A stretch of DNA of 64,000 nt from a virus, in IMG/VR virus record IMGVR_UViG_3300037067_026753; one strand, given 5' to 3'. The notes under the pieces are model-generated. The model was not told where the DNA came from. It did no database searches and was given only the letters and a program-made list of their open reading frames with translations. Of this stretch, positions 17,944 through 47,051 are shown piece by piece. The position numbers and the translations under genes were made by a program. Within the stretch, counting starts at the first letter, position 1. The number at the start of each line of letters is the position of its first letter.

Positions 17944-18093
17944 ACCCTAACAACTCTATCAACCCAATCATCTTGAACCGCAAAGACAAGTAAGCTATCC
18001 CTATCAATTTTCTTAAGGTCTCTGCTTAATAGAATCACCCTATCAACTCTTTCAACCCAATCAAACTGAGCCAACTTGAACCCTCTGCTTAGG
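17944..18093. repeat. imperfect tandem direct repeats at the left edge of the island
   Basis: Three copies of CCCTA(A/T)CAA(C/T)T(C/T)T, plus two copies each of CAACCCAATCA..CTTGAACC and TCTGCTTA(A/G). Confidence 0.6.
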
Positions 18094-18213
18094 CGACTCG
18101 CTACGGGGGCCCTGGTACCCCCTCGAGTATACCTCCCTATACCTGCACCAGAAGGTATCTAGAAGGCCCTCTAGCATGCCTGTCTAGAGGGGGTATATAG
18201 ACCATAGGTAGGG

Positions 18214-18438
18214 TTATTCAAATGTGCCTGCCGGGGTTATAGTATTTATAACTGTGATTTCCTGGTTCTTGTTTTTGGTGGGAGCATCGAAAGAAACCGT
18301 GGTGATGTTGATTCCTTTTTTTGCCAGGGCATTGAGGATTTTGGCAATTCTTTTGGTGAAGGTGGCTTGAGTTTCTTCATCGGTTTTGATTAGGTTGACT
18401 TGCATTTGCTCTCCTTTGTTTGTTGTTGAATTGTGCAT
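18214..18438 (-). CDS. cassette gene, hypothetical (74 aa)
   Basis: Preceded by the element GCGATATAACT...AAAAGGAGAG. Confidence 0.5.
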   Translation of the reverse strand: MHNSTTNKGEQMQVNLIKTDEETQATFTKRIAKILNALAKKGINITTVSFDAPTKNKNQEITVINTITPAGTFE

Positions 18439-18477
18439 AAACTCTCCTTTTGTTGTACAAGAGTTATATCGCTTGTT

Positions 18478-18723
18478 TTACTTGTACCTGCCAATTAGCT
18501 GGTCGTAGATTTGTACTGCTTCATAGAGCCCAATGTTTGTGGCAGTGCGCAAGCTTTTGACAAATTCGAGTTTCGTTGGAGCTGGGGTTGACATTAACCA
18601 GTCATCGGCATATTTTCTGGCTTCGTCGAAAGTGTATGTTATCTTGAGTTTTTTCAAGATGTCATCGTCCGGGTATCTTGTCAAAAGAGTGTGATGTTGT
18701 TCCGAAGTTAAAATGACGTACAT
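18478..18723 (-). CDS. cassette gene, hypothetical (start MYVILT)
   Basis: Promoter/SD element at 18725-18790. Confidence 0.5.
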   Translation of the reverse strand: MYVILTSEQHHTLLTRYPDDDILKKLKITYTFDEARKYADDWLMSTPAPTKLEFVKSLRTATNIGLYEAVQIYDQLIGRYK

Positions 18724-18859
18724 AAACTCTCCTTTTTGTTGATAGTAAGTATATCGCAAGTAAGGAGAGACACTGCCCGCAAACCGACTAGCATAAAACA
18801 AGTTAGGGCCCATGTAATATATAGGCCCTTGGCTTGCGGTGTGCTAAACCAGGTCGCTG

Positions 18860-19297
18860 TTAGGTGTCGCTGGTTTCGTCATAATGAATGGTGAAGGAGA
18901 TTGTCAGTTTTTTGTCGTCGAATTTGAAGTTGGTGTAGTAGGAGTCCACAAAGCAGTCATCCCTGCCATGGTAGGTGAAATCGAAGTACCGCAAGTCATC
19001 CCAGTATTCCCGGACTGACATGTCTTTGGCAGCGATCTTGACGCCCTCGGACGTCTCATATTCCCGGTGTTCCTCGGTGGGATTGTCGTAGGCATGCTTG
19101 ATTTTGTCGTAGAGTGCCTGGTCACAGCCAAAGGTGATTGTCAAGCCCTCATTTTTGAGATCGCGGAGTTCCGGCAGTTTGTTGGGCAAGCGGTTTTTCC
19201 AGTTTTTGGTTTCGAAAGCTTTAAGGGTGAGGTCGGTGATTACCAATGACTTGAGTTTCTTGGACTTGACCGTGACCGTTTTCTTGCTGATTTCCAT
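18860..19297 (-). CDS. cassette gene, hypothetical (145 aa)
   Basis: Element TTGGCA-N18-GATATAATT...AAAGGAGAGAG upstream. Confidence 0.55.
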   Translation of the reverse strand: MEISKKTVTVKSKKLKSLVITDLTLKAFETKNWKNRLPNKLPELRDLKNEGLTITFGCDQALYDKIKHAYDNPTEEHREYETSEGVKIAAKDMSVREYWDDLRYFDFTYHGRDDCFVDSYYTNFKFDDKKLTISFTIHYDETSDT

Positions 19298-19375
19298 ACC
19301 CTCTCTCCTTTGTTAAGTGGTTTTTCCTTTGATAGTAATTATATCGCAAGAAAACAATCTGATTGCCAAAAACAA
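19298..19375 (-). promoter_or_regulatory. cassette promoter with 5' leader (representative copy)
   Basis: Minus strand reads TTGGCAATCAGATTGTTTTCTTGCGATATAATTACTATCAAAGG...AACAAAGGAGAGAG then ATG. Confidence 0.6.
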
Positions 19376-19413
19376 AACGGGGCCCGTAGGCCCCAGGGTG
19401 AAGGGAAAGCGCA

Positions 19414-19785
19414 TTAGGCAGTTGCCAGGGCGGTGGTGTCGGCGGCCGGTGCTTTGGCAGTTTTGGTCGTCTTCTTGCTGCTTTGCTTGAAGTATTTCGC
19501 CAGGATCTTGTCGAGGTCAACCGTGTCCTCCACACCGGCGATGATTCCGCGGACGCTGCCGAGGTGGCATTTCTCGATCTGTTCACCGGTGTACGCCTTG
19601 ACCCGGTCCCCGAGTTCCTTGAGAACGCTGGTGACTTCCAGGGCTCTGCCTTTGAGAATCGCTTTCTTTTCGCCCCGGACGAAGGTGATGCAGGTTTTCT
19701 TCGCGATCATTTCGACACCGGCCGGCAGCGTGACTGCGTTCACTGCAATTGCGTTGGTGTTGGCGGTTGCGGCTTTCTTGCTCAT
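19414..19785 (-). CDS. small basic protein, paralog of 22742..23026
   Basis: The core …VTLPAGVEM…ITFVRGEKKAILKGRALEVT…IEKCHLG… is shared with the paralog. Own promoter element at 19790-19850. Confidence 0.55.
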   Translation of the reverse strand: MSKKAATANTNAIAVNAVTLPAGVEMIAKKTCITFVRGEKKAILKGRALEVTSVLKELGDRVKAYTGEQIEKCHLGSVRGIIAGVEDTVDLDKILAKYFKQSSKKTTKTAKAPAADTTALATA

Positions 19786-19842
19786 AGAAACTCCTTTGAA
19801 AAGGTTGATTGATTTGTTGTTGATAGTGATTATATCGATTGT

Positions 19843-20004
19843 TTTACGCCTGACTGCCAGCCTGTGTTTCGCTCTCTGCTGGCCTATTGTCAATTGCCAT
19901 GTCAGCCAAGAAAGAGATAAGTTGTTTTTCAGCTTGTTCTCTCTTTCTGAACCTGTCAAAGATTGCTTGTTGCTTGGGACTTGCTTTTTTATATTTGCGT
20001 TCCA
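19843..20004 (-). CDS. small ORF (MERKYKK…, about 54 aa)
   Basis: SD AGGAGGAGGA and an upstream GCGATATGA. Not in the ORF track. Confidence 0.3.
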
Positions 20005-20048
20005 TGTGAATCCTCCTCCTTCATATCGCCAGAAGAGAAAAAGGCTGC

Positions 20049-20237
20049 CTAATTGGCAGCCTGAGTACGCTGGTCAAGCCGTATTGCGCTGGGGAATTCG
20101 ATTTTCGGCGTGGTGCCCCGGGCAGCCATGATTGCGGCTTTTTCAACCTGGAACTGCGCCATTGCCAACCGGATGCTCTCTTCGATTTCACGGTTGCGCA
20201 TACGTTTCGGATATAGGGTCCTGGTTACTTCAGCCAT
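20049..20237 (-). CDS. cassette gene, hypothetical (MAEVTRTLYPK…, 62 aa)
   Basis: Element CGCGATATAGTAATTG...AACAAAGGAGAGAAAATG. Confidence 0.5.
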   Translation of the reverse strand: MAEVTRTLYPKRMRNREIEESIRLAMAQFQVEKAAIMAARGTTPKIEFPSAIRLDQRTQAAN

Positions 20238-20367
20238 TTTCTCTCCTTTGTTGAGTACAATTACTATATCGCGGGTTTTTAGTGGGCTTGCCAAATCAGC
20301 GCGGGCCCGACGAGCAAACACAAAGCTCCCACCTATAGGTAACCTATGGGCATGAGCTTGAATGTGC

Positions 20368-20647
20368 TTAGGGATTGTACCAGAACACTAGGATAAAGGT
20401 ATAACCGGTTTGAGTTTTGGCGAAGTTTTCGATGCCATAGAAGTCGATCGAAGATCTGCCAAGGTCATTGTCCTCGAGGAAATCGAGCACATTTTCTTCG
20501 CTGAGATCATTGGCAGTCGTGAGTTTGACCGGGACTCTTGACTTGTCGTTCTCATCCCGGATATCGATAATTTCTTTGGCTTTCAAATTTCTGGCAACTT
20601 GGTACAAGCTCGGCAGACTGGTAGCAATGATACCAGAAAGCGTTCAT
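20368..20647 (-). CDS. cassette gene with a frame inconsistency
   Basis: The SD-associated ATG at 20647 opens a 31-aa frame. The long 79-aa frame (20368..20607) begins with TTG in another frame. Confidence 0.3.
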
Positions 20648-20673
20648 TAACTCTCTCCTTTGTTGTGCAATAA

Positions 20674-21003
20674 CTATATCGTTGTCAGGTCCAGTGGCTG
20701 CCATAGTTCGATTTGTTCGATAGCCAGTTGCAAGTCAGCCAAGTTTTTGATTTGACCCTCCCACTGGAGTATTGGGCTTATAGGGTTCAACTTGAACCCA
20801 TGGATCGAATGGATTCTGCCACTCGGATAAATGACAAAGTCAATCTCCTCATCGTTGATTCTGTCATATATGGTGGCAAAAATTGAGGGTATGGTAGAGT
20901 CGCTGTCTTGGTGGTCAAGAAATACAGCTGTAAACCGTTTGGGCAATATGGCAGCCAGGGTTTCTTTTGTGAGAATGTGCATGTGCGAATTTAAGACATT
21001 CAT
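20674..21003 (-). CDS. cassette gene, hypothetical (109 aa)
   Basis: Intact ORF with an AAGGAG region upstream. Confidence 0.45.
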   Translation of the reverse strand: MNVLNSHMHILTKETLAAILPKRFTAVFLDHQDSDSTIPSIFATIYDRINDEEIDFVIYPSGRIHSIHGFKLNPISPILQWEGQIKNLADLQLAIEQIELWQPLDLTTI

Positions 21004-21064
21004 GGTGTCATTTTCTCCTTGTTAAGCGTAATAACGTAAGGGGGCGGTTTGACCGCCAACCCTT

Positions 21065-21130
21065 AGCCCTCAATTGCTCCAACGCCCATGAGCACCAGAA
21101 TGCCAACCAAGTAGATCCCCATAACCATAA
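21065..21130 (-). CDS. 21-aa hydrophobic micro-protein (MVMGIYLVGILVLMGVGAIEG)
   Basis: Has its own complete promoter/SD cassette (CACGATATCAAC...AACAAAGGAGAGAGTT then ATG). Confidence 0.35.
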
Positions 21131-21436
21131 CTCTCTCCTTTGTTGTGGTGTAGAGTTGATATCGTGCGTTTTGTGTTTGGCAACCAACACAGTTTCGGGC
21201 GATATAGTTAATACTGCTAAACGGCGAGGGCTTGTGCAGGGAGATCGGGGTAGTGTATTTGCTAAACTTGCTTGCTTACGCGTTATACGCTCTTGTACTT
21301 GCATACGCCTGCGCTTGTATACGCACTATAGCGCTTATAAAAACAAAAAAGGTAGGAGCCAAAGGCGCCCTGCCTGGGCACTCATTGGCTACCTACCAGT
21401 TAAAGGAGAGAGAGATTTTGAGGTGAATTTCGCTTG

Positions 21437-21805
21437 TTATGCGGCTGCAATTTTTTCTCTGGCAGTCATGACTTTTGCAGCCAAGTCCGTGAACCGAGTT
21501 TCTTCCTCAGCAAGTTTCTTTTTATATTCAGCTTCGATCGCTGCCATGCGATCAGCATGATCTTGATGAACATCACCCGCATGCTCAATCAAGTCATAGG
21601 CAGAGTAGATATCGTCAGCGTAAGCGCTGTAGCCCATGCCAGGGCCTGAGCGGCTCAACTTGCTGTGTGGCACGTTGACAAGTACGATTCTTGCCTTAGA
21701 GTACTTTTTGCGATCATTGGCAATGCGCGTCTTGACTTCTTCTTTGTCAGATGAATAGATGCCCGTGAAATGCAGGCCTTGAGCGTGTGCTTGTTGTTCG
21801 TTCAT
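21437..21805 (-). CDS. cassette gene, hypothetical (start MNEQQAH)
   Basis: Element at 21806-21850. Confidence 0.5.
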   Translation of the reverse strand: MNEQQAHAQGLHFTGIYSSDKEEVKTRIANDRKKYSKARIVLVNVPHSKLSRSGPGMGYSAYADDIYSAYDLIEHAGDVHQDHADRMAAIEAEYKKKLAEEETRFTDLAAKVMTAREKIAAA

Positions 21806-21834
21806 AGTTTTGCTCTCCTTTTGTTTGATAAGAG

Positions 21835-22242
21835 CTATATCGAGCGTTTCCGGCATGCATGCCATTGATCAATTGCTTTTTGTACGCTGTTTGGCATGCT
21901 GTCTGCCAGTTCTTCGTCATTCATTACCATGTCAAGAGCATCTTCGGCAGCTTTGAGTCTTGCTTTATCAACTGCAAGACATTTTCGTGTCTCATCGCTT
22001 GATGGCTGGAATGTATTCCCTTCATCACCAACTTCAATAAGGCCTTCATGGATCAAGCCGGAAAGCTGTGTGGCAATTTCATACATTTCACATTCCATAC
22101 CCTGTGACTTCAGGTAGGAATAAATCTCTTTGGCAGTCACTGGCGCCACAGCATAGATATACTCTTTGATAACGGACCTTCGAATTGCAAGACCCTTGTT
22201 TGCTTGTATTTCTTCAGCAGTCTTTCGAATTTTCTTATCCAT
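21835..22242 (-). CDS. cassette gene, possible winged-helix protein
   Basis: Element CTCGATATAGCTTCTATCACCAACAAGGAGAGAAACG then ATG. Confidence 0.5.
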   Translation of the reverse strand: MDKKIRKTAEEIQANKGLAIRRSVIKEYIYAVAPVTAKEIYSYLKSQGMECEMYEIATQLSGLIHEGLIEVGDEGNTFQPSSDETRKCLAVDKARLKAAEDALDMVMNDEELADSMPNSVQKAIDQWHACRKRSI

Positions 22243-22481
22243 CGTTTCTCTCCTTGTTGGTGATAGAAGCTATATCGAGCGTTGAGCGGGCTTTGCCAAA
22301 TCGCGTTTGAGCAAAAGCATACTTTGGTGTATATAAGGCCCTGCATCACTTGTAACGGCGCAATTGATGGCGACTTGCAGCGGGACACGGCACATTCTTG
22401 CATAGTCTCTTGCCCAGTTCATTGCCATGGCTTGAGTTTTTCTTCGCCTATTTGTGCAATCCATTCAAGATCAAGTTGAGC

Positions 22482-22631
22482 GCTCATTGTCTGCCCTCTT
22501 TCTTGAGGATTGCATGCAAGACATACAAGTCGATTATTTCTCTGTTGAGTTGACGTACTTGTTCAGTCACGCCAGCTTTTTGTACTACGTGGAGCAGTTT
22601 GAGTTTTGATTCGATTTGAAGTTCAAAGTTC
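22482..22631 (-). CDS. small cassette ORF (49 aa, MNFELQIES…)
   Basis: Element at 22632-22670. Below the ORF-track size cutoff. Confidence 0.35.
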
Positions 22632-22741
22632 ATACTTTATCTCCTTGTACTGACTATATCGAGAGCAAAAGCACAAGCCGCCATAAAACAAAAAGAGCCC
22701 TGGAGTTAACCAGAGCTCTTCCTGCCCGTGGAATTGGCAGC

Positions 22742-23026
22742 TTACTTGTAATAGGCGGCCAGGATTTTGGTCAGGTCGATGGCATCGGCCACGCCACGGA
22801 CGACGCCCTTGATCGCGCCGAGGTGGCATTTTTCGATGATTTCCTCGGTGTACGTTTCGATGCGCTTGAGCGTCTTGGGCGTGTTGGTGACTTCCAGGGC
22901 CCGGCCCTTGAGCACCGCTTTCTTTTCACCGCGGATGAACGTGATCGCGGATTTGCCGGGTTTCATTTCCACGCCCTTGGGCAGCGTAACGGCATTCAGG
23001 TCAATGGCGGCAACTGCTTTACTCAT
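22742..23026 (-). CDS. small basic protein, paralog of 19414..19785
   Basis: See the paralog entry. Confidence 0.55.
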   Translation of the reverse strand: MSKAVAAIDLNAVTLPKGVEMKPGKSAITFIRGEKKAVLKGRALEVTNTPKTLKRIETYTEEIIEKCHLGAIKGVVRGVADAIDLTKILAAYYK

Positions 23027-23159
23027 AGTAACTCCTTGAAAAGGTTGTGTTCCTCCTGATAGAGGTTATGTCGCATGTTTTTGCAGGACCTGCCAATGTA
23101 CTTACTTGTAGTATTGCTGCTACGCGCGTATAGCGCGCACGCAAGCGCTTGAGCACAAA

Positions 23160-23218
23160 CAAAAAAGGTAGGGAGTTACAAGGGTGTTGAGCACCCATTG
23201 GCTACCTACCATGTGTAT
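23160..23218 (-). terminator. intrinsic terminator (repeated element, copy B)
   Basis: Minus strand GGTAGGTAGCCAATGGGTGCTCAACACCC...CCCTACC followed by TTTTTTGTTTGT. A near-identical copy lies at 21350-21405. Confidence 0.55.
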
Positions 23219-23379
23219 TAAGTTAGAAAGAAGAATTCGTCCAGCGAACTTGCAGTGTTGAGAGCGATTGCCAGATTGAGAAAGTCTTCTTGGCCAATTA
23301 CTGTGTCACGGTCAGGCCGTCCACCCAGGAACGGGATACTTACTGGTATCTGGTATTTTGTTTTTTGTGTGCGTTCCAT
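23218..23379 (-). CDS. small cassette ORF (53 aa)
   Basis: Element CTCGATATAGTTTTTAACAACTAACAAGGAGAGAGAGTT then ATG. Confidence 0.4.
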   Translation of the reverse strand: MERTQKTKYQIPVSIPFLGGRPDRDTVIGQEDFLNLAIALNTASSLDEFFFLT

Positions 23380-23552
23380 AACTCTCTCTCCTTGTTAGTT
23401 GTTAAAAACTATATCGAGAGATTTTGAGTAACTACCAACATAGCTACGACTGTGCGTAGCACAACAAGTCGTTATTATATATTGTACCATTAAGTGTAGT
23501 GCAATAAAACAGCGCTGGGCCCCGTAGGGCCCTTGGCTGTAAGGAGAGAAAG

Positions 23553-24197
23553 TTATTTGATATAAGGTTTGGATTTGCCACAGAGTGCCCGGAGTTGTGC
23601 CACATTGGCAGCATTGCCGGCAATTTTGTAGAGCCGTTCATCGAAACCTTCCTTCAGTTCGTACTTCATGACCGTCTGGAAGAACTTGCTGAAGTTGGCA
23701 CCGAGCAATTTTGTCAGCTCTGCTTTCAAGACAGCATCCTCGAAAACTTCGGGTTTGAGGGTGACAATCGGTTTTGTCTTGACTTCGACAGCGAACTGGT
23801 CGCCGAGCAAGACCTTGAGTGTGTCGATTGCGTCGGTTGAAACTGAGAACTTGTCCTGGGAGATGAAGGTGGCTTTCGTCTTGCCGTCGTCGCTCAGTAC
23901 TGAATAGGACCCGGAAAAATCGCCTGCAAGGCCGTCGGTATCCTGGCGGTTCAAGCAGAGTTCCAGCAGGGGTCCTTCCTCGGACCGGAAGGTACCTTCG
24001 GCGGCTTTCATTTCGCGTTTGGCTTTCAGCATTTTCTCCAGTTTTGCTGACTGAGCCGCATCCAGCTTGATGACAGGTTTTTTGTCCTTGGATTTGACGG
24101 CATCCGGGGAAATTGTGGATGTGCCGACCATTTGTTCGAATGACAGATCGGTATTTGCCGTTGCAACGGCAACTGGATCTGCTTTTCTTTTGGCCAT
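23553..24197 (-). CDS. cassette gene, hypothetical (214 aa)
   Basis: Element with GACATAGTG...AAAGGAG. Confidence 0.5.
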   Translation of the reverse strand: MAKRKADPVAVATANTDLSFEQMVGTSTISPDAVKSKDKKPVIKLDAAQSAKLEKMLKAKREMKAAEGTFRSEEGPLLELCLNRQDTDGLAGDFSGSYSVLSDDGKTKATFISQDKFSVSTDAIDTLKVLLGDQFAVEVKTKPIVTLKPEVFEDAVLKAELTKLLGANFSKFFQTVMKYELKEGFDERLYKIAGNAANVAQLRALCGKSKPYIK

Positions 24198-24339
24198 AGA
24201 AACTCCTTTGGTTAAAGTACGTTCACTATGTCGCTCAATTTTGGCTGGGCTGCCTTGAAATGTTTTCTGTGTTCGTGACAGTAACCCATGATATCTCTCC
24301 TTGTTAGAAGCTATATCGTGAGTTTATACTGTTTTGCCA

Positions 24340-24555
24340 TTAATGCGGGCAGTCACATTGGGGCCCAAGTAAAGAGGAGCATCTTGGGCAAAGGACAATG
24401 TCTTTGAAATACTCAATGACAAGCAAGTCGTCGTCAAGTGGCAGGAAATTGTCGAGGATAATCTCTTGCACTCGGTCAACAGTTTCTTCATTGAGACCCA
24501 GCTGGTTTATAACGGCTTCAGCTGTTTCCAGTAAAGTATCAGCTACATTGCTCAT
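24340..24555 (-). CDS. hypothetical protein (start MSNVADT); second gene of a two-gene cassette
   Basis: SD GGGAGATG. No promoter element of its own. Confidence 0.45.
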   Translation of the reverse strand: MSNVADTLLETAEAVINQLGLNEETVDRVQEIILDNFLPLDDDLLVIEYFKDIVLCPRCSSLLGPQCDCPH

Positions 24556-24643
24556 AAACATCTCCCTACCAGCATGCCGCCGATAAAAGCAACTGTGCTG
24601 CACATAACAAGTATGAGCAGCAAGTATTTTGCTTTTGGGTGTT

Positions 24644-25051: not shown

Positions 25052-25239
25052 AATGGTTTCTCTCCTTTGTTACTAGCTATATCGTGCGCTGTTGAGTTAC
25101 AGCCAAACAAAGCTCCCCGCATTTTACGTTTGGCATGTCTACCGGAGTTTCCGAAGTATTTGAGTACTTGGGAAACTCCGCATGCCGCCCCAACCAGCAG
25201 AATGGCTGTTGTGCAAGGGAGCTTTGTTAAGCTGCCTTG

Positions 25240-28599: not shown

Positions 28600-28710
28600 G
28601 AGTTCTCTCCTTGTTAGGAGCTATATCGTGAGTTACAATTTTGTTGCCAAACAAAAAGGGCGCCCAGCCTAACTGGTACGCCCCCAAGGAGAGAACGAGA
28701 GGAATCTTGT

Positions 28711-38829: not shown

Positions 38830-39246
38830 TTACGCAAAATATTTGGTTACCAACTCGTTCAACTCGTCCTGGCTGGTCACTTTCCCCAGCATACGCGTTT
38901 TCCCCAGGTGGTTCTTCTTCGCTTCTTCCTCGCTTACTGCTTTAAAACCCTTCAACCCGGTTACCTTATGGGTCAAACCCACACTGGCTCCACGTACCCA
39001 CATACGTTTCTCTCCGGCTTCTGCCGTAATTACGTACTTGGTCTCATTCACGGTCACGCCCTTGGTTGCCTTAATTTTCAAAGGCTCCTTCTTCACACGC
39101 GGCTGCTTTGCCTTCTTGTCCTTGTCTACCGGCTTAGTCTGCTTGGGTTCCGGTTTTTTCCCTGTTGCGGCTTTCTTCGCCATTTCGTCTTCTCCTCCTA
39201 CCGGCTGCGTATCTCCCGCCTCCGGAATCGTTCCTGTATCGCCCAT
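38830..39246 (-). CDS. lysine-rich histone-like (H1/Hc1-like) DNA-binding protein
   Basis: N-terminal AKKAATGKKPEPKQTKPVDKDKKAKQPRVKK tail, followed by a small globular C-terminal domain. Confidence 0.45.
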   Translation of the reverse strand: MGDTGTIPEAGDTQPVGGEDEMAKKAATGKKPEPKQTKPVDKDKKAKQPRVKKEPLKIKATKGVTVNETKYVITAEAGEKRMWVRGASVGLTHKVTGLKGFKAVSEEEAKKNHLGKTRMLGKVTSQDELNELVTKYFA

Positions 39247-39568: not shown

Positions 39569-39570
39569 AA

Positions 39571-39875: not shown

Positions 39876-40079
39876 GTTTTTCAAACTTGCTCGATATGCC
39901 CGAGCCACAACCAACAAAAAACAAGCAACAAAAAAACTCCCTCAACAACCAGCCACATGCCCGACACACCCGAGCAAACTTGCATAACTATTTACCAGTG
40001 CACTTGAATGCGCATATACGCGCTTGCAATTCTCATATACATTATGCGTTCTAGAACACGTTTATAGGGTTATAGGAAC

Positions 40080-40210
40080 TGAACAGCAAAAACAGGGCCC
40101 TAGTTTCTTATAGCTGTTCAGTCTTATAGCCGTTCAGCATAGCTGCTCAAGCTGTTCTCTTAGCGGGTTCTGTTTAGCTGCTCTCGTTCTTTAAGCTGTT
40201 TAAAGCCGTT
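40080..40210. repeat. iteron-like direct repeats (about 8 copies of AGCYGYTC at 11-16 nt spacing); candidate replication origin
   Basis: tagctgttcag / tagccgttcag / tagctgctcaag / ctgttctc / tagctgctctcg / aagctgttt / agccgtttt. Located in the divergent intergenic region. Confidence 0.5.
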
Positions 40211-40352
40211 TTAGGTCTTGTATAGTTGTTCTACCATGTTTTGTAGTGAGTTTGTTGTTTCCTTTTTTGTTTGTTTGGATGTCGTGTGTTTTTTTTTAGA
40301 TTGCCATGTTTTTATAGTTTATAATTTCTTGTTGTTGAATGGGGGGTTTTGT

Positions 40353-41186
40353 ATGTTTGAGCGTAGGGAGTTTCGTGTTGGTTGGTTGCGGGCGTGGTGG
40401 GTGTGGTGTAGGGAGGTAGATCGAGTTAGTAGGTGGAGGGAAGTTGTAGTTATAAAGCGTAGGCTTGAGTGTGAGTTGGTAGAGCGGGCGTTTGTGCGTA
40501 TGAATAGGGTTGGTTGGACGGCGATGTTGGGTTGTGATGATTATGACCGGTGTGTTGAGTTGGGCGTGAGTTTGAATGTGGCTGGGGTGCATTTGGTGCG
40601 GGATGGTAGTGTGGGGCGTGGTTGTACGTGGTGGGAGGCGCCGGTGGTGGTTAGGGAAGCAGCTGGTTTGGAGCCCTTGTATGGGCATGTGGGTAGTAGA
40701 GCTGTAGGTGTTACAGGTATGCAGGGTGTGACTGGCGCGGGAGGGTTGTGGGATAACCGTAATAATGACGTTTGGTATGAGCCTACATTACGTGGTACTG
40801 GTTTTGGGGATATAGTTGAGCCTGTTGCAATAGGTGACGTTAGTTATGCTGATTATTTTGGTGGTAGGCCGGTGGAGGTGCAGGTAAGTTTTGACGTGGT
40901 TAAGAATAAGCAGTTAGTGGAGCAGGGCCCTAAGGTTAATAGGCGTATGGGTTGGGTGGTAAATGAGCGTATAGAGCAGCAGCCCAAGCCTGAGCAGCCA
41001 GTAATGGGACAGCATATAGAGCAGCCGGGGTGTGTGCATACAAAGCCCGTTGTAGTGGCACACCCGTTGGTGAGCGACCCGGCTGCAAGGGTTAGGGCCC
41101 GTTGGGCTGAGTTATTGCGGTTAGCAGACGCAACACATAATGAAAACGAGCGTACTGGTGATGATACCCGTGAGCAGGGTGCATAG
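40353..41186 (+). CDS. G/V/W-rich hypothetical protein next to the iterons (possible Rep?); start uncertain
   Basis: 322-aa ORF from 40218. The best ATG with a G-rich SD is at 40353. Composition is very unusual because the strand is C-depleted. Confidence 0.35.
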   Translation: MFERREFRVGWLRAWWVWCREVDRVSRWREVVVIKRRLECELVERAFVRMNRVGWTAMLGCDDYDRCVELGVSLNVAGVHLVRDGSVGRGCTWWEAPVVVREAAGLEPLYGHVGSRAVGVTGMQGVTGAGGLWDNRNNDVWYEPTLRGTGFGDIVEPVAIGDVSYADYFGGRPVEVQVSFDVVKNKQLVEQGPKVNRRMGWVVNERIEQQPKPEQPVMGQHIEQPGCVHTKPVVVAHPLVSDPAARVRARWAELLRLADATHNENERTGDDTREQGA

Positions 41187-41541
41187 AGGGTGATATATAG
41201 ATAGTTGGGTATGAGCCGTGAGGAGGAGTTATGTTGTGGGAGAGCTTGAAGCGTTATTATTTGTAGTTGATTTGCACTATACAGAGCATGCCGTTGATAA
41301 GCTTGTAGATAAGCTTGACTTGACAAATTACGCTATGGTGCGTATGAAGGAGGAGGGTGGATATGCGCAGGTTTAAATAGTGCAAGCTGCTGGCCATACC
41401 CTGAGTTTTATGTAGTAGAGTATAGAGTGTGGTTTTTGTTGTAGTTGTGGTAAAAATAGTATACCAATAGATATAACCATAGTAAGCAGCTTGAAGTAGT
41501 GGGTAATATGTATGATAACCCAGAGTTGAGGGAGCAGGTAG

Positions 41542-41736
41542 TTGGGAAAGAGTAGTGAACCAATTAGAATGTGGACAGTTTTAAGTGATTGTGCAATATG
41601 CCATATTACCGTGCCGGGGGCGCCTTATTTGAGTACTGATATTAGGTATACGCTTGACGAATATAAACGCATAATGGAGTATGAGTTACGCCAGCAGAAA
41701 CGGAAGCGGCGAGCACATAGCACACATTTTAAATAA
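41542..41736 (+). CDS. hypothetical small protein
   Basis: ORF at the head of the rightward operon. Confidence 0.35.
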   Translation: MGKSSEPIRMWTVLSDCAICHITVPGAPYLSTDIRYTLDEYKRIMEYELRQQKRKRRAHSTHFK

Positions 41737-41746
41737 GGAGTTTTTA

Positions 41747-41902
41747 TGCAGTTTGGTTGCGGGCATAGCATAGTAAAGTGTAAGGCATGTGGTAAGGTGA
41801 TAAGCCAGTGCCGGTGTTTGAATGCAAATAAGCCGGTGGTGTGGAGCGTGTGCGACAAATGTAAGGCTGGTGTTGACCCTAAGCAAGAGGTAAGGGGATG
41901 AG
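41747..41902 (+). CDS. 51-aa Cys-rich zinc-binding protein
   Basis: CGHSIVKCKACGKVISQCRC…CDKCKAG. SD aaggag. Confidence 0.35.
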
Positions 41903-41904
41903 CT

Positions 41905-42183
41905 GTGTGCGTGATAACAAGAAAAGCAGATGACGTAGTGGTGAGCATTAGTTTGATACCTGGGTTAGCCAGACTGATGAATGATAGATTACAGGGTGGG
42001 CAGTATGTGTTGTTTTGCGAAGATTGTGCCCGTAAAGCTGGATTAGAGAGCAGTTTTGAAAATAGTATTATAGGCGTGATAGCAGGACAGGGCGTGTGTT
42101 GTCAGGGTTGTGATAGGGATATAGGTGGTAGAGATGTTTATTTGCCCGATAAGCGTTTGAAATTTAAGTGGATAGCAAAATAA
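41905..42183 (+). CDS. KFKWLA-family protein A (C-terminal …RLKFKWIAK)
   Basis: Cys-rich, with the C-terminal motif shared by 43933..44331, 44344..44937 and 44941..45219. Confidence 0.45.
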   Translation: MCVITRKADDVVVSISLIPGLARLMNDRLQGGQYVLFCEDCARKAGLESSFENSIIGVIAGQGVCCQGCDRDIGGRDVYLPDKRLKFKWIAK

Positions 42184-42801
42184 ATGTTGAGTGAACGTTG
42201 TAAGTATTGTGTGCATAGAGATGATAATGAGAGGGTTTCACACTGGCAACAAAATTTTAGTTGTATAAAGTGTGCTGGTTTGAGCAGCTTGGTTTTTTTT
42301 AAGTTGGATAGAACACAGATTAATAAAACGGTAGTTGAAAAACCAAGGCCAAGTGCTGCTGGACGGTTCAAGTTTGTGTTTAAGGATATGTATGATGAGA
42401 AGAAGCAAGACGATAACCGTAAGCAGTACGTACAGGATTTAGTAAACAAGTTAGCTGCTCTACATCGTAGCCAGTTGACACGGTTTGTAGGTTTGTTAGA
42501 GCGCATAAAAGAGTTTAAGGATGTGGAGCCGTGGCAGTGGGTGTGGTATGACTGTGATAACCCGATAACATGGCCAGAGCTCGGTGTGCCCGTGCTTGTT
42601 ATGGTAGGGCAAGCTTATAACCGGTATTATATGGTTTTAGAGCGCAGGGTGTTAGAGCGTAATGGGAGTGTGGATAAGTGTTGCTGGTTTATGCATGTTG
42701 AAAATTGGTTTTTGCGTGACGATATGAACGTGGTGTGTTGGTGTTTAATAGGCCCACCGCCCGTATTACCTGCACCAGTGCCGACAGCGATACCTATATG
42801 A
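42184..42801 (+). CDS. hypothetical protein (205 aa), N-terminally Cys-rich
   Basis: CKYCVHRDD…CIKCAG. Confidence 0.45.
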   Translation: MLSERCKYCVHRDDNERVSHWQQNFSCIKCAGLSSLVFFKLDRTQINKTVVEKPRPSAAGRFKFVFKDMYDEKKQDDNRKQYVQDLVNKLAALHRSQLTRFVGLLERIKEFKDVEPWQWVWYDCDNPITWPELGVPVLVMVGQAYNRYYMVLERRVLERNGSVDKCCWFMHVENWFLRDDMNVVCWCLIGPPPVLPAPVPTAIPI

Positions 42802-43010
42802 ATATACGTAAACTAGCAAGACGTAAACCGGCAACAAGAATAGCTGTACCAGAAGAGGTAAAAAGTAAAGTAATACGTGTGCGTGTAACTGAGCAAGAAT
42901 TTAAGACAATATATAGTGCTGCTAAACAGCGTGGAGTAACAGTAAGTATGTTGTTGATTGAAACTGTATTGAAAAAAATAAAAAGGGAGTTAAAAAATGG
43001 ATGTGCTTGA
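42799..43010 (+). CDS. ribbon-helix-helix (CopG/MobC-like) DNA-binding protein
   Basis: IRVRVTEQEFKTIYSAAKQRGVTVSMLLIETVLKKI shows the beta-strand/helix/helix pattern of RHH proteins. Confidence 0.45.
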
Positions 43011-43155
43011 TGGTATTGAAAAGTTTGCTGACAGAGTGGGTAAGCTATTTGGGAGTAAGGGGTGGGTGATAAAAGCATTTGTTATGTTTGCGTGCGTGCT
43101 TGTGTGTGGCGGGTTGATAGTGATAGGAGCACTTGCAAAGAAGGATAGCAAATGA
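42997..43155 (+). CDS. 52-aa membrane peptide
   Basis: SD aaaagggag. One TM helix (VIKAFVMFACVLVCGGLIVIGAL). Confidence 0.35.
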   Translation: MDVLDGIEKFADRVGKLFGSKGWVIKAFVMFACVLVCGGLIVIGALAKKDSK

Positions 43156-43367
43156 GTGCTGACAATAGCGAAATGATGAAGGAGCTGATAGAAGCACTTT
43201 GTTTTTATGCTGACCCTGATACTTATTTTGCTATAGGTTTTTTTCCTGATTTGCCGTGTGGTGAGTTTATTAAAGATTTTGACGAGTCGAAAAAGCCTGG
43301 AGCAAGGGCCCGTAGTGTAATAAAAAAATACCAAGCAGAGTTACAGGGGTTATATGACGATAGATGA
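43152..43367 (+). CDS. hypothetical small protein
   Basis: ATGA coupling. Confidence 0.4.
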   Translation: MSADNSEMMKELIEALCFYADPDTYFAIGFFPDLPCGEFIKDFDESKKPGARARSVIKKYQAELQGLYDDR

Positions 43368-43623
43368 TGGCGAATATTACAGTGCGATACCGTATGTGCA
43401 GCTACGTAGACGCAGGGTAAGGCAGCCTGAAAAGAAGGAAATACGGCTTGACGTTGATGCATTTAGACAGGAGTTGCTTGATAATATAAAGCAGAACCCA
43501 ACACAGATAGGTGATAAGCATATTGTAATGTGTTGGCCTGAGACAGAATCAACACGCCGTGTAAGGTTGAAGAAGTTTTTAGAAAAGCGTTTTTGTGTTG
43601 CGCCCTTGTTTAGACGAGGATGA
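43354..43623 (+). CDS. hypothetical small protein
   Basis: Overlapping coupled ORF. Confidence 0.4.
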   Translation: MTIDDGEYYSAIPYVQLRRRRVRQPEKKEIRLDVDAFRQELLDNIKQNPTQIGDKHIVMCWPETESTRRVRLKKFLEKRFCVAPLFRRG

Positions 43624-43756
43624 TAGCAATATACATGTGCGCTGGTTGTTTGAAAAGACTGAAAATGGTTTTTTGGTGGCAGGTTTGAGTTTGTGAAAGC
43701 AGAGAAAAGGGTACAAAAGCAGCAAATTGAAAAAAATAAATTGAGGTTTATAGTTA

Positions 43757-43936
43757 ATGAAAACTGAGGAAGTGATAAGTGCTTTGAGCGAGGCTTGTAA
43801 GTGTGGTGATAGTGCAGGTTTGCGGCAGTACCACCAGCAGACAGCACCGCATATAAGTTATGTTGAGTGGCTTGAACGTAGAGTAGTTATATTGACTGAG
43901 TATATAGTTGAGAAAGCATTGAAAGAGCAAAAATGA
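43757..43936 (+). CDS. 59-aa hypothetical protein
   Basis: ATG with its stop overlapping the next start. Confidence 0.3.
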   Translation: MKTEEVISALSEACKCGDSAGLRQYHQQTAPHISYVEWLERRVVILTEYIVEKALKEQK

Positions 43937-44331
43937 CCATAGATGATTTGTGGCGCCCAAAGCCGAATCTGTGTGTGGCAAAAGATCTTGACGTCGAAAT
44001 GTATTATGAGGACGTAATAAGTTGTATACAGAGTAACCCAAGGCAGAATGAAAATAAGGACCGTGTGTTGTGCAGGTACCAGAATCGAAATGTTTTGTTG
44101 GTTAGGTTTGTTAGAGAGGGCTATAATTATTTTATTTTGAAGACATGGGGCTTTAAGGAAGCTTGTTCTGATTTTAGTATCAATTATAAGTTGTTGCATG
44201 TGCGTTGGGTGTTAGAGTATAGAGCAAGGCCCGATGATATAGGTAGGTTTGAGTTGGTGAGAGAAGATGATGGAGATAGAGTGCAAGTGAAAGAGCAGCC
44301 TAAAATGAAGTTTAAGTGGCTGGCAGAATAG
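43933..44331 (+). CDS. KFKWLA-family protein B (C-terminal …KMKFKWLAE)
   Basis: Shared C-terminal motif. Confidence 0.45.
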   Translation: MTIDDLWRPKPNLCVAKDLDVEMYYEDVISCIQSNPRQNENKDRVLCRYQNRNVLLVRFVREGYNYFILKTWGFKEACSDFSINYKLLHVRWVLEYRARPDDIGRFELVREDDGDRVQVKEQPKMKFKWLAE

Positions 44332-44343
44332 AAAGTTTGACAA

Positions 44344-44937
44344 ATGGCACGGCTTGGTGAGCGTAAGAGTATACGGTTAGAGAGCAATGATGGATTGGCG
44401 ACTATAAGAGCAAACTTGTTAGCTGACCCGCAGCAGACAAGCCGTAGGAAACTTATGTTTGGGAAAAGCACTGGTATAACCTATGCTAATTTTAGTTTGC
44501 CGGTTTGGTTAAAGCGCGGGTATGAGTTGTACCGGGTGCGTAATAGTATAATCGAGTGGGACAGCACGAGCCGGACGTTTAGGTTAGTGCCCAAGGTGAC
44601 AATGGATACATTGGTGGCTACGAGCGATGTGACTAAGAATAAGTTTAAATGGTTAGTTGATGAAACATTGGTTACATTAAAAAACCGCGATTTGGGTGAT
44701 ATAAGTAATGATATCCATCGATACTATGATGTAATTACAAAGCCGCCAGCGACAAAGCCTTCAAGTGGTGGACAGTCGATACCTTGGAATTATATAACAA
44801 CAAGCGAGGTGAATACGAATCCGTGTAATTGTTGTGGACTTTATGAGGTTTGTGAATCTTGTTGTGATGCTCAGTATCGTTTTGTATTTGACGATAGACC
44901 CGAGCCAAAGCCTAAGTTTGCATTTGTGTTTGGGTGA
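44344..44937 (+). CDS. KFKWLA-family protein C (two fused units; internal …NKFKWLVDE, C-terminal …PKFAFVFG)
   Basis: Shared motif at mid-protein and a related one at the C-terminus. Confidence 0.45.
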   Translation: MARLGERKSIRLESNDGLATIRANLLADPQQTSRRKLMFGKSTGITYANFSLPVWLKRGYELYRVRNSIIEWDSTSRTFRLVPKVTMDTLVATSDVTKNKFKWLVDETLVTLKNRDLGDISNDIHRYYDVITKPPATKPSSGGQSIPWNYITTSEVNTNPCNCCGLYEVCESCCDAQYRFVFDDRPEPKPKFAFVFG

Positions 44938-44940
44938 GTT

Positions 44941-45219
44941 ATGTGGACTGTGCGTGTAAATGATGGTTTTTGTACATGGGAGTATGAAATGACAGGTGAA
45001 CATAGTAGCGTTGCAAATACAAGTATAGCTAATGTGATTAATGCAATTACTAAGAATACTGGTTTGATAGTTACAAAAGCTACTTTTATTAATGCAATTG
45101 AGCCGCAACAAGTGGAGTCGCAGGTAGACAAGCAGAATAAGCAGAACATAAAGTTTAAAAGTGGAAAAATAGGTGACCCAAAAATAAATGTAAAGTTTAA
45201 ATTTTTAGCACAGGAGTGA
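44941..45219 (+). CDS. KFKWLA-family protein D (C-terminal …NVKFKFLAQE)
   Basis: Shared C-terminal motif. Confidence 0.45.
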   Translation: MWTVRVNDGFCTWEYEMTGEHSSVANTSIANVINAITKNTGLIVTKATFINAIEPQQVESQVDKQNKQNIKFKSGKIGDPKINVKFKFLAQE

Positions 45220-45222
45220 AGT

Positions 45223-45534
45223 ATGGTAAAAGAGATAGTGGAGAATTTTGCAAAGAGTGGTGTGTCCCAGGCTGCTTTAGAGCGTATACTTGATTTGGGC
45301 CAGGGAGATTTGAGCAAAGAAGAGACGCCAGAAATGATAGCTCTTATGCGTATTGTGGCGACATATCCTTGGTTGCTTAGTGTAGCTGAGCATCATTATG
45401 ACGAAAAGTATGCAAATAGAGTCGTGTTGCATGTGGGTGTAGATGCATTGCTCGATATGCAAGAGCAATTAGCAGGTAGTGAGTGCAAGTGCGAAAAAGA
45501 GCAGCCAGCAAGTGAAGATGCAGGTAAGAGCTAA
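45223..45534 (+). CDS. hypothetical acidic protein
   Basis: Intact ORF. Confidence 0.4.
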   Translation: MVKEIVENFAKSGVSQAALERILDLGQGDLSKEETPEMIALMRIVATYPWLLSVAEHHYDEKYANRVVLHVGVDALLDMQEQLAGSECKCEKEQPASEDAGKS

Positions 45535-45598
45535 TTTGCATTGATTTTATTTTTATTATAGATTGCGCGCAAGCGCGCACAGAGAGGGATTAGTAGTC

Positions 45599-46024
45599 AT
45601 GTGGTTGGATACATTTAATGATACTGAAATAAATGTAGGCATATGTGAAGCTTGTATGCAGGAGTTTTTCCCTGATGATAAACTTATGGAGAGTGCTGCT
45701 TCTTATCTGTGCCCTATATGTATGAGTGTAATTCAAGTAAGGGGCAAGATGGGCGTGCTTAAGTTGAGGAAAAGCGTATTTGAAGCACTCATGAACACAA
45801 AAACTAAACGTTTTATATTGTGCAAGCGTTGTGCTGACAGCAGGAATTTAACCAGCGAGAATATGACAAGTCCGTTCACAGACAAAAACAAGTATGTATG
45901 TCGGTTGTGTGGTAATAAAGAGGGACATGCTGAATATATGTTGCCGAATAAAGAAGCAGATTTGTTGTTGAGAAAAAAGAACTCGAAAACAATTGACAAG
46001 TTAAAATTTCGTTTTATACAGTGA
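45599..46024 (+). CDS. zinc-finger protein (start MWLDTFND)
   Basis: CEACMQEF…CPICMSV and CKRCADS…CRLCG motifs. SD agagaggga. Preceded by a TATTATAGAT box and a GCGCGCAAGCGCGC hairpin. Confidence 0.45.
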   Translation: MWLDTFNDTEINVGICEACMQEFFPDDKLMESAASYLCPICMSVIQVRGKMGVLKLRKSVFEALMNTKTKRFILCKRCADSRNLTSENMTSPFTDKNKYVCRLCGNKEGHAEYMLPNKEADLLLRKKNSKTIDKLKFRFIQ

Positions 46025-46031
46025 GTGTTAA

Positions 46032-46337
46032 ATGGCAAGAATTTGTGGCAAGCGTGGTAGAGCGATACCGTCAAGTAAGGTTTTTTGTTTCGATTGTGAG
46101 GTGAGCATGTTGGAGAAGCAGAAGAGCCCTGATGAAGAATTGAGAATGAGAGCCAATGAAATAATGTTGGGTTCAAAAGGTTTCATGTTGTTTGCTGTTA
46201 CTCATTCTGGCGCAATAGAAGCTGTAGGTGATACAACTAGACTTACGACAGTAGAACAACTTGGACTTGAGTACTATGTGCAAGAATTTAATCCGATTGA
46301 AATTGATGAAGACGAAGACGACCGAGCACCTTTTTGA
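46032..46337 (+). CDS. hypothetical protein
   Basis: Intact ORF. Confidence 0.4.
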   Translation: MARICGKRGRAIPSSKVFCFDCEVSMLEKQKSPDEELRMRANEIMLGSKGFMLFAVTHSGAIEAVGDTTRLTTVEQLGLEYYVQEFNPIEIDEDEDDRAPF

Positions 46338-46349
46338 ACAGGAGAAAAT

Positions 46350-46847
46350 GTGGCTCTAGCTTTAAATATAGGTTGCCATGACATACATATTGCTGGTATG
46401 GTAAATGTAGACAATGACGCAGCAATGAAGCCTGATTTGTTATTAGATTGTACGAAATTGACAAGCAAGTTTGAAAAGAACAGCGTTGATTTTGTGTATG
46501 CCGGGCATTTTTTTGAGCATTTTGATGTGCATGTAGGCAAACAAATTGTAATCGATATTTTTACTATATTGAAGGATTATGGTGTTCTAGTTGCTACAGT
46601 ACCAGATTATACAAAATGTTTTGGTATGAAGATTGAGGAAGCTGAGCGAATTATTATAGCAGTGGGTACCCATAAGGTACTTATGAACATAGATAGATTG
46701 AGAGATTATTTGTGTTGTGCTGGTTTTAAAACTGTGGTACAAGCAAAGCCGAGTGAGTTAGCACATTGTCCGTTTCCTAATGTAGAGTGGCAGACAAGTA
46801 TAATAGGCATAAAGCACCCGCATATAAATTTCCATGGTATAGCATAG
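46350..46847 (+). CDS. class I SAM-dependent methyltransferase (GTG start)
   Basis: Motif I LNIGCHD (hhhhGCG-like) and VDFVYAGHFFEHF (post-II). SD ggag 5 nt upstream of the GTG. Confidence 0.5.
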   Translation: MALALNIGCHDIHIAGMVNVDNDAAMKPDLLLDCTKLTSKFEKNSVDFVYAGHFFEHFDVHVGKQIVIDIFTILKDYGVLVATVPDYTKCFGMKIEEAERIIIAVGTHKVLMNIDRLRDYLCCAGFKTVVQAKPSELAHCPFPNVEWQTSIIGIKHPHINFHGIA

Positions 46848-47051
46848 TTACCAGTACCATGTGTTGTTTTCATCTACGCTTGTGTCAATGCGGCCATTGA
46901 TTCTATCTGATATGTTTGTTATGATTATGCTCAAGAATGCAGCAATGCCTATAATCCATAAAATAGTTTGTAACATAAGATTAATATACTACAATTAATA
47001 GGCTTTTGAATCAGTTCGAGTAGGTACGGGCACATAGGTAATTATGGTGTT

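Follow-up and report, generated by a model that had tools for sequence, protein, structure and literature searches.

The host-takeover genes of phage SPO1 have strong early promoters and unusually strong Shine-Dalgarno (SD) sites. They form one module of 24 small genes in the 13-kb terminal redundancy (PMC10531801), and in phage T4 the systems centred on rIIA are regarded as counter-defence (PMC7824862). T4 origins of replication lie at transcriptional divergence with shifts in nucleotide skew, and one of them, oriE, has iterons and depends on an early promoter (PMC3016281). Among huge phages, bS21 and tRNA-repair genes are known, and bS21 has been proposed to redirect translation initiation (PMC7162821). 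Here we analyse a G+C-rich region of two divergent gene arms (positions 17944 to 47050) in the IMG/VR virus record IMGVR_UViG_3300037067_026753; the whole stretch of 64,000 nucleotides analysed is called the window. We propose that this region is probably a native block of a huge phage genome, in which an inherited regulon on the minus strand (the minus arm) stands beside a lineage-specific operon on the plus strand (the plus arm), and not an inserted element. A preliminary description had considered a phage early region in a larger virus genome, and this idea is supported: rIIA and rIIB, the promoter cassettes and contigs of up to 424 kb agree with it. The region is not one unit, however, the plus arm being separate, and early timing is suggested by analogy.

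The minus arm resembles the T4 rIIA-rIIB locus in encoding a full-length rIIA homologue of 725 aa, the length of the family profile (phrog_612, 725 positions), with an N-terminal GHKL domain, and it resembles the T4 early clusters in having rIIB near rIIA in the same orientation, amid many small promoter-bearing genes. In contrast to T4, its rIIA is only 25–31% identical to the rIIA proteins of cultured phages, its neighbours, which encode an FtsK-like motor, a DUF932 protein and a 304-aa protein, have no place among the genes of T4, its promoters follow the consensus TTGGCA-N17/18-GATATAG, and its early timing is a prediction. With the SPO1 module the minus arm has in common a dense array of small, mostly orphan genes for which host takeover is the presumed role. 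However, the array here is about twice as large (~42 genes in 22 kb), contains rII genes and an FtsK-like motor, has no sequence similarity to that of SPO1, and differs from the rest of its genome in G+C content and in G+C content at third codon positions (GC3). As an early-type regulon it is unusually large and regular.

The huge phages of Al-Shayeb et al. (2020; PMC7162821), for example LR756500.1 (462 kb), have in common with this phage the size class, bS21, tRNA-repair and metabolic genes, and a suppressor-type tRNA. The rIIA of LR756500.1 is 38% identical over the N-terminal half, but only rIIA and rIIB are found in both among the genes of the block, and the LR756500.1 genome has a uniform G+C content of 0.19–0.30, a flat positive skew and no cassette motif. 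We therefore rejected LR756500.1 as too distant to be an informative relative.

The window is part of an uncultivated huge phage

Several observations indicate that the window is a native part of a ~424-kb uncultivated huge phage. Proteins identical to those of the window were found on contigs of 424,144 bp (JGI) and of 214,816 bp and 87,615 bp (ENA). Just outside the window (L012 3247-3462; L016 13331-15724; L numbers denote loci from other assemblies) lie genes for bS21, an intein-containing RtcB RNA ligase, NADAR, NAPRTase, a cellulase and a response regulator, with the bS21 gene ~7 kb beyond the window. The gene calls used throughout were greedy longest open reading frames (ORFs), cross-checked with those publicly available for this DNA.

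A near-identical copy of this DNA is present on the 74-kb GenBank contig JAQUND010000007.1 (L001, L016, L035), which is filed under a metagenome-assembled genome (MAG) of Candidatus Nanoarchaeia; this archaeal filing is probably a binning error. No close relative was found in IMG/VR, INPHARED or the GTDB representatives. Megablast found no counterpart of the G+C-rich region or its right flank among 50,697 deposited phage genomes, and scans of IMG/VR with rIIA, with a 587-aa protein of the left flank and with the promoter-leader pattern described below found nothing. Seven single matches to the promoter-leader pattern in a genome collection lay in unrelated MAGs, and by our own estimate for 18 specified bases in 596 Gb this number is the one expected by chance.

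The minus arm is a regulon of promoter-bearing cassettes

Alignment of upstream regions in the minus arm revealed a recurring cassette head, which consists of TTGGC(A/T), a spacer of 17–18 nt, (C)GATATAG, a leader of 20–40 nt with (C)TAACAAGGAGAGA, and ATG. About 28 genes have the promoter-like and leader signals, 14–15 of these also having a full −35 element, and in a subset of genes the head is preceded, often, by a G+C-rich hairpin with a T-run resembling an intrinsic terminator; the cassette listed as an example in Table 1 has such a hairpin and T-run upstream. The motif CGATATAG occurs 25 times in the window (0.86 copies expected), with 21 copies on the minus strand between 20.2 and 38.5 kb, and AACAAGGAG occurs 16 times (0.55 expected). 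A scan for generic σ70 promoters was not enriched (33 matches, 27 expected); the true −10 element, GATATAG, lacks the final T, so the motif needed to be found de novo. The promoter TTGGCA-N17/18-GATATA is σ70-like, which suggests that the host polymerase probably transcribes these genes as soon as the phage enters.

SD cores of at least 5 nt precede 22 of 35 minus-arm genes, compared to 6 of 33 and 5 of 31 genes in the two flanks and 3 of 18 in the plus arm. Thus, the strong SD sequences that had been ascribed to the region as a whole are a property of the minus arm and do not extend to the plus arm. Four genes of the left flank have a cassette-type promoter, TTGGCA-N17/18-GAT(A/T)T(N), whose −10 element ends 7–8 nt before the ATG, and would be transcribed as leaderless mRNAs. 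The difference between block and flank is one of translation initiation mode and codon composition. Because one promoter type serves SD-led and leaderless genes in a phage that also encodes bS21, control of translation initiation becomes testable here.

Analysis of the proteins of both arms covered the ORFs of 18.2–44.3 kb in Pfam and PHROGs; the ORFs of 44.3–46.85 kb were scanned in Pfam, and PADLOC and NCBIfam were applied to selected proteins. The protein that the preliminary description had listed as a GHKL ATPase contains such a domain and is, over its full length, an rIIA homologue: residues 1–708 match positions 1–716 of the 725 in phrog_612 (E = 2e-69), with a weak HATPase_c match at residues 44–125 (E = 1e-3) and weak matches to the ATP-binding models of HSP90, TopoVI-B and sacsin. 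The family search returned 621 homologues of rIIA. The rIIB homologue lies 887 nt downstream in the same orientation, beyond two small genes.

Upstream of rIIA, the FtsK/SpoIIIE-type protein was recognized as such from the start, and its family and structure matches (Table 1) agree, as do a Walker A motif (GTTGSGKS at residue 148) and a Walker B motif (VLVIDE at 247). It is a soluble motor; FtsK-like genes are common in phages (416 records). No membrane anchor was found, as the maximal 19-residue Kyte-Doolittle value is 1.23, on the Walker A strand, and the first 130 residues are hydrophilic; nor was an FtsK_gamma domain found at E ≤ 0.01, the protein ending a few residues past the motor match. 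Compared to FtsK, the motor is present and the two other domains are absent. Its NCBIfam scores fall far below the cut-offs for the FtsK equivalog (221.7 against 1566 bits), plasmid_TraB (67.6 against 800) and SXT_TraD (22.3 against 366), and are far under that of the EssC model as well. A PADLOC defence system was considered and rejected, since the only matches were at the level of domains in this motor (SspH, HerA). The 304-aa protein has no family in Pfam, PADLOC or NCBIfam and belongs to one PHROG family without known function. For the 138-aa protein near the head of the arm, the label "histone-like" was dropped, as no match was found in Pfam, NCBIfam or PDB. The other minus-arm products are orphans or clade-specific proteins.

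The minus arm is conserved in relatives of lower G+C content

Homologues of the rIIA protein at 87, 80, 77, 71, 58, 57 and 52% identity were found, all of them in metagenomes only. Loci L020, L022 and L028 encode rIIA at 57–58% identity, L023 at 77% and L024 at 71%; together with L027 and L029, the last two make up a group with rIIA at 71–80% identity or partial. The gene order FtsK-like motor, 304-aa protein, DUF932 protein, rIIA, rIIB is kept in L020, L022 and L028, with the DnaJ-like gene present also in L022, and the same order including the DnaJ-like gene is kept in L023, L024, L027 and L029. The regulatory signals are kept as well: sense-strand copies of CGATATAG and AAGGAGAG number 12, 13 and 5 in L020, L022 and L028, and counts among relatives of 12, 13, 23 and 18 compare to 0–1 in flank loci. 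The conservation of genes and signals in these relatives indicates that the block and its regulatory grammar are old and were inherited within the clade.

The low-G+C relatives differ from the window in two ways. Their block has a G+C content of 0.32–0.40 and a GC3 of 0.19–0.40, and L020, L022 and L028 have no plus arm. These findings indicate that the rise in G+C content is an overlay specific to a sub-lineage on an old gene block, not the sign of a foreign insert, and that the plus arm is a later addition. The neighbours of the block also change in distant relatives. The genes immediately upstream of the block are homologous to the window genes at 53.3 and 55.5 kb in L022 and L028, and to those at 7.0 and 9.8 kb in L031. 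The context of the region is the same in every near-identical strain, and no empty-site allele was found among these strains and the relatives. In L022, a Tad2-like gene of the anti-Thoeris family (PF11195; 1914-2222) lies just upstream of the block, which fits a counter-defence role of the neighbourhood.

Taken together, the absence of recombinase, relaxase, capsid and terminase genes and of flanking repeats, and the conservation in relatives, point to an inherited regulon. We propose that the minus arm would be an early gene set for host takeover or counter-defence, by analogy with T4 and SPO1, and that its genes may be read one by one by a σ70-type RNA polymerase, probably that of the host, soon after infection. 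Several points weigh against this interpretation. The label "early" is borrowed from the systems to which the arm is likened, and the four leaderless genes of the A+T-rich left flank with a cassette-type promoter indicate that the promoter alone separates no temporal class. The interpretation does not account for the rise in GC3 (0.50 against 0.29), none of the relatives found extends over the left edge of the region, and no capsid or terminase gene was seen directly in the 82 kb of phage genome read. Nevertheless, the minus arm provides a regulon read from sequence alone, with a promoter, leader and terminator grammar over ~42 genes that is conserved in a clade. It is a ready list of candidates for host-takeover and anti-defence genes, and its promoter consensus points to the polymerase used.

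Composition of the region and possible causes of its high G+C content

The region has a G+C content of 0.451, compared to 0.341 in the left flank (5001–17943) and 0.348 in the right (53301–64000), so that the contrast first described is real, although its figure of roughly 50% was too high. The G+C content is 0.463 in the minus arm and 0.418 in the plus arm, and GC3 is 0.50 and 0.40, respectively, compared to 0.28–0.30 in the flanks. G+C content at second codon positions is nearly constant between region and flanks, and the excess resides largely in third codon positions. Tetranucleotide usage likewise sets the minus arm apart, with r of 0.57–0.67 between flanks and minus arm and of 0.91–0.94 among three flank segments. 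The region is thus a G+C-rich isochore inside an A+T-rich huge phage.

The two edges proposed for the region fared differently. On the left, where the edge had been placed at about 18.0 kb, a single-change-point scan located the change at 18,065 (z = 19). On the right, the edge proposed at 47,050 is not a compositional boundary: the G+C content holds at 0.43 as far as 50.6 kb. The scan placed the change best at 50,541, or at 53,249 when started from 41 kb. The left-edge segment (17912–18213), which is also the site of an upward jump in strand skew, contains two imperfect 46-nt direct repeats (17934–17979 and 18027–18072, 78% identical and 93 nt apart) and one 12-nt inverted repeat (18116–18127 and 18184–18195). 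The tandem repeats and palindromes reported there thus come down to these two copies and this one inverted repeat, in a segment whose folding is not unusual (z = −0.7). As had been noted, the right edge has no repeat matching the left: the longest word common to both is 12 nt, which is at chance level. No terminator-like site was found at the right junction, and no repeat in common with the left edge or the junction near 40 kb.

There are three candidate causes of the rise in GC3, namely piecewise allelic replacement, selection for host-like codons in the genes translated first, and a recombination-linked bias. The first is a possible, though tentative, explanation. Here an ancestral low-G+C early block would have been replaced piecewise in this sub-lineage, by homologous recombination with alleles from one or more related phages of higher G+C content. 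Comparison of the window with L001 showed 99.7–100% identity in the flanks and the plus arm and 13–17% divergent patches in the minus arm only, at 30–32 kb (rIIA) and 34–36 kb; accordingly, rIIA is 87% and FtsK 100% identical between the window and JAQUND010000007.1. These patches show that allelic exchange with diverged relatives occurs inside the block, and the graded G+C content of the block among relatives (~0.36, 0.39 and 0.46) and the sharpness of the left step also speak for exchange. Against it, no uniformly G+C-rich relative was found, every contig of a G+C-rich relative ending inside the block, and the low-G+C locus L028 also has a small step, from 0.30 to 0.36, where the block begins, which suggests a property of the region and not of a donor. 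In addition, within the G+C ranges of 0.35–0.47 in L024 and 0.41–0.52 in L023, the rise in L024 is limited to junction-proximal genes and consists of G at third positions alone. When set against the low-G+C orthologues, the silent sites of junction-proximal genes show a gain of G and a loss of A and C, the direction that deamination of a displaced single strand would be expected to give.

Selection on codon usage is a more doubtful cause. Under this proposal the genes translated first would carry host-like codons and strong SD sequences suited to unmodified host ribosomes and tRNAs, and the rest of the genome would reflect an A+T mutational bias, with leaderless or SD-poor mRNAs, phage bS21 and phage tRNAs. 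The G+C-rich DNA does coincide with SD-led units, as illustrated by the change point at 50,541, which falls on an SD-led promoter at 50,543; the flank genes are SD-poor, four of them leaderless, and a bS21 gene of the kind proposed to redirect initiation (PMC7162821) is at hand outside the window. However, a match to host codons is hypothetical, and the plus arm combines few SD sequences with a moderately high G+C content. Relatives hold SD-led cassettes at a GC3 of 0.19–0.40, so that SD-led expression does not need a high GC3.

The region is very probably not a mobile element

The other possibility in the preliminary description was a plasmid-like or mobilisable element that moves as double-stranded DNA by means of an FtsK-like pump. 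Such an element, or a satellite, integrated in the phage genome is very improbable. Part of its appeal lay in the co-occurrence of an FtsK-type motor, a NikA-like ribbon-helix-helix protein, a DUF932 "phage/plasmid" protein and an iteron cluster, together with the sharp compositional step at 18,065, and the transfer system of actinomycete integrative and conjugative elements (AICEs) provides a precedent in principle, since a lone FtsK-family ATPase (TraB), a small DNA-binding protein and repeats could move double-stranded DNA. In contrast to an AICE, however, the region has a motor that scores far below the TraB and FtsK cut-offs and has no membrane anchor, and it has no integrase, no att repeats and no replication-initiator family among the proteins scanned. 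As first described, there is no integrase or other recombinase, relaxase, terminase or capsid gene among the proteins scanned in Pfam and PHROGs. Flanking repeats are absent, the right edge has no compositional boundary, the two arms have different histories, and the minus arm with its signals is syntenic in relatives down to 57% rIIA identity, some of them at the low G+C content typical of their genomes. We conclude that the region is not a member of the integrative and conjugative element (ICE), integrative and mobilisable element (IME), AICE, plasmid, prophage or satellite classes, which removes a false lead toward a new FtsK-driven mobile element.

The misjoining of a G+C-richer contig into an A+T-rich phage contig during assembly, which the abrupt change at 18.07 kb and the breaks of several assemblies inside the region might suggest, can be set aside, because both junctions are recovered at 99.99–100% identity in independent assemblies (the left at 100% in L006, L007 and L008; the right in L003, L004, L005, L033, L034 and L036), a single ENA contig covers 12.5–43.3 kb, and the cassette promoter type is present on both sides.

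The divergent junction, the plus arm and the pilin-like operon

The region comprises two arms, which, as first described, diverge from a region bearing iterons. The junction contains a tandem 16-mer (TCTTATAGCYGTTCAG twice, at 40106–40137), five copies of AGCYGYTC within 72 bp (40112–40183; 13 copies in the whole 64 kb, 5.6 expected) and an inverted copy at 40078–40092. In L024, the inverted repeat CTGAACAGC/GCTGTTCAG of this junction reads CTGGGCAGC/GCTGCCCTG, the changes being paired; no alignment was obtained for L023.

The plus arm is a lineage-specific orphan polycistronic operon, added later and separate from the minus arm. No internal promoter motif was seen in it, and C accounts for only 0.09 of its third codon positions. 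Only the first two genes have recognizable counterparts in L023 and L024, and the arm is absent from the low-G+C relatives. The one plus-arm protein that was searched against 5.8 billion proteins, a 205-aa product from the middle of the arm, matched only itself. BLAST inside the arm found no paralogous families despite recurring KFKWLAE C-termini. The ribbon-helix-helix protein proposed earlier was confirmed as NikA-like just at the family cut-off, with weak NCBIfam matches to MobA and RelB, and the S-adenosylmethionine-dependent methyltransferase proposed for the last gene is a marginal assignment only (Table 1). The first gene of the plus arm (40353-41186, plus strand) varies between strains of more than 98% identity (L034, L035), with an in-frame deletion of 17 aa in one and a C-terminal frameshift in another, which suggests weak constraint.

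Beyond the right junction lies a minus-strand operon with a prepilin N-methylation motif and a PilW-like protein. It is headed by TTGGCA-18-GATATC at 50543 with an SD leader, and the G+C-rich domain ends there (50,541).

Strand skew and possible origins of replication

The plus-strand GC skew at third codon positions declines linearly and with near-equal slopes in three successive domains between 4.9 and 58.5 kb (Table 1). With the curated list of genes from public calls, the correlation in the middle domain was −0.80 (p = 1e-8). Upward jumps in skew separate the domains at 18.07 kb (the left edge) and 40.06 kb (the iteron junction), with weaker jumps near 4.9 and 58.5 kb. At the junction, the skew switches from −0.41 to +0.47 in adjacent 1-kb windows, and the fitted third-position skew from −0.40 to +0.63. 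To our knowledge, a sawtooth skew pattern has not been described for any phage; it resembles the N-domains of mammalian chromosomes or the gradient of single-strand exposure in mitochondrial DNA.

Transcription-coupled asymmetry was considered and rejected as the main cause of this pattern, since the genes between 40 and 58.5 kb, 17 on the plus strand and 20 on the minus strand, fall on one line. In the left flank, three genes on the opposite strand obey the prediction for the strand and not that for the sense. The trend is therefore independent of gene orientation, and the bias belongs to the DNA strand, not to the transcribed sense. Among the relatives, slopes per kb of −0.053 (L024, p = 2e-4), −0.019 (L022, p = 4e-4) and −0.026 (L023, p = 0.09) were obtained, and the skew was flat in L020 and in the distant LR756500.1. 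In L023 and L024, the divergent arm begins and the skew switches strongly; L027 and L029 also have strong skew and stop short of the junction.

These results raise the possibility, which we regard as tentative, that the 40-kb junction and the left edge are origins of replication. Taken further, and still more speculatively, the segments at 17.9–18.2 and 40.06–40.2 kb might be origins of a multi-origin chromosome, with the minus arm as one complete inter-origin domain. Between such origins, silent-site bias would fall from ~+0.4 to −0.4 at about −0.035 per kb and would jump up at each origin. Like the T4 origins of the oriE, oriF and oriG type, the junction at 40.06–40.2 kb has direct repeats, divergent transcription and a switch in skew. 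It differs in that the skew declines linearly from the site and is not level. In addition, the second jump, at 18.07 kb, occurs at a convergent and not a divergent junction, and no initiator family was matched among the proteins scanned. If the skew does reflect replication, origins of huge phages could be mapped from sequence, and such genomes would replicate from many origins.

Features of the window and other observations in the flanks

The coordinates of the features discussed above are collected in Table 1.

Table 1. Features of the 64-kb window (positions count from the first nucleotide; bit scores are given against the family cut-off)
Feature	Coordinates	Strand	Remarks
Skew domain, left	4.9–18.07 kb		Slope −0.030/kb; rho −0.56; p = 5e-3; n = 24; fitted skew −0.09 to −0.48
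Skew domain, middle	18.07–40.06 kb		Slope −0.036/kb; rho −0.72; p = 2e-6; n = 33; fitted skew +0.38 to −0.40
Skew domain, right	40.06–58.5 kb		Slope −0.039/kb; rho −0.86; p = 6e-12; n = 37; fitted skew +0.63 to −0.09
Genes of unusual cargo	448–1509, 2383–3486, 5479–6021, 6523–6912, 12226–13242		Set named in the text
Heads of flank genes predicted to be leaderless	6010–6049, 7817–7857, 15840–15879, 16241–16280	+	Cassette-type promoter
Left edge, convergent intergenic segment	17912–18213		Bordered by a plus-strand gene of the flank and the last gene of the minus arm
Minus arm	18214–39923	−	~42 small genes, all on the minus strand (count from public gene calls)
J-domain (DnaJ-like) protein, 116 aa	25240–25590	−	Pfam DnaJ, 27.9 against 27.8 bits; kept in relatives
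Example of a cassette head	28600–28655	−	TTGGCA, 17 nt, GATATAG, leader CTCCTAACAAGGAGAGAACTC, ATG of a 127-aa gene
rIIB homologue, 361 aa	28711–29796	−	phrog_609, E = 7e-56; PF26926 (precomputed)
rIIA homologue, 725 aa	30683–32860	−	phrog_612; N-terminal GHKL ATPase domain
DUF932/TIGR03299 "phage/plasmid-like protein", 292 aa	33688–34566	−	Pfam, E = 2e-28; NCBIfam, 138.7 against 110.7 bits
Clade-specific conserved protein, 304 aa	35932–36846	−	62–95% identical in relatives
Soluble FtsK/SpoIIIE-type motor, 362 aa	37291–38379	−	PF01580, E = 1e-49; best PDB match FtsK 2ius, E = 4e-71
138-aa protein, earlier "histone-like"	38830–39246	−	Lysine-rich N-terminal tail; C-terminal domain strongly conserved (alignment)
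Divergent junction	39924–40352		Repeats; sign switch of strand skew
Plus arm	40353–46847	+	Tightly packed operon of ~17 ORFs; several overlapping stop/start codons
NikA-like ribbon-helix-helix protein, 70 aa	42798–43010	+	Pfam, 27.1 against 27 bits; PF21983 (precomputed)
Short methyltransferase-like protein, 165 aa	46350–46847	+	Methyltransf_11, 21.6 against 21.2 bits; no NCBIfam match
Right convergent junction	46848–47051		Right edge of the preliminary description; not a compositional boundary
Type IV pilin-like operon	47052–50543	−	G+C 0.43, GC3 0.47; pilin-like genes at 47447–50543

Several genes of the flanks encode cargo unusual for a phage, including a GluR0-like ligand-gated potassium channel, PspA/IM30, a CesT-like chaperone, a rhomboid protease, a GNAT acetyltransferase and a Na/Ca exchanger. 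The left flank also contains a tRNA with the anticodon CTA (6913-6985, minus strand), which is of the amber-suppressor type, is called "Pyl" by ARAGORN and is the sole match of the window in an Rfam scan (tRNA, 60.8 bits). Stop-codon recoding was examined in view of this anticodon and rejected, as reading TAG, TGA or TAA as sense in the window adds no coding density or ORF length beyond that from generic removal of a stop codon.

The 587-aa protein of the left flank (14027-15790, minus strand) has as its only homologues proteins of 36–47% identity, two of them with a laminin-G-like domain. Where their context could be read, these homologues belong to the tail modules of Mu-like phages, where the tape-measure and DNA-circulation genes flank them. 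The 587-aa protein may therefore be structural or an adhesin, isolated here amid non-structural genes. Because these Mu-like phages are unrelated, the homologues are uninformative on the synteny of the left flank. Finally, two adjacent small genes near the right end of the window (62878-63132 and 63279-63482, minus strand) are paralogues with 73% protein identity.

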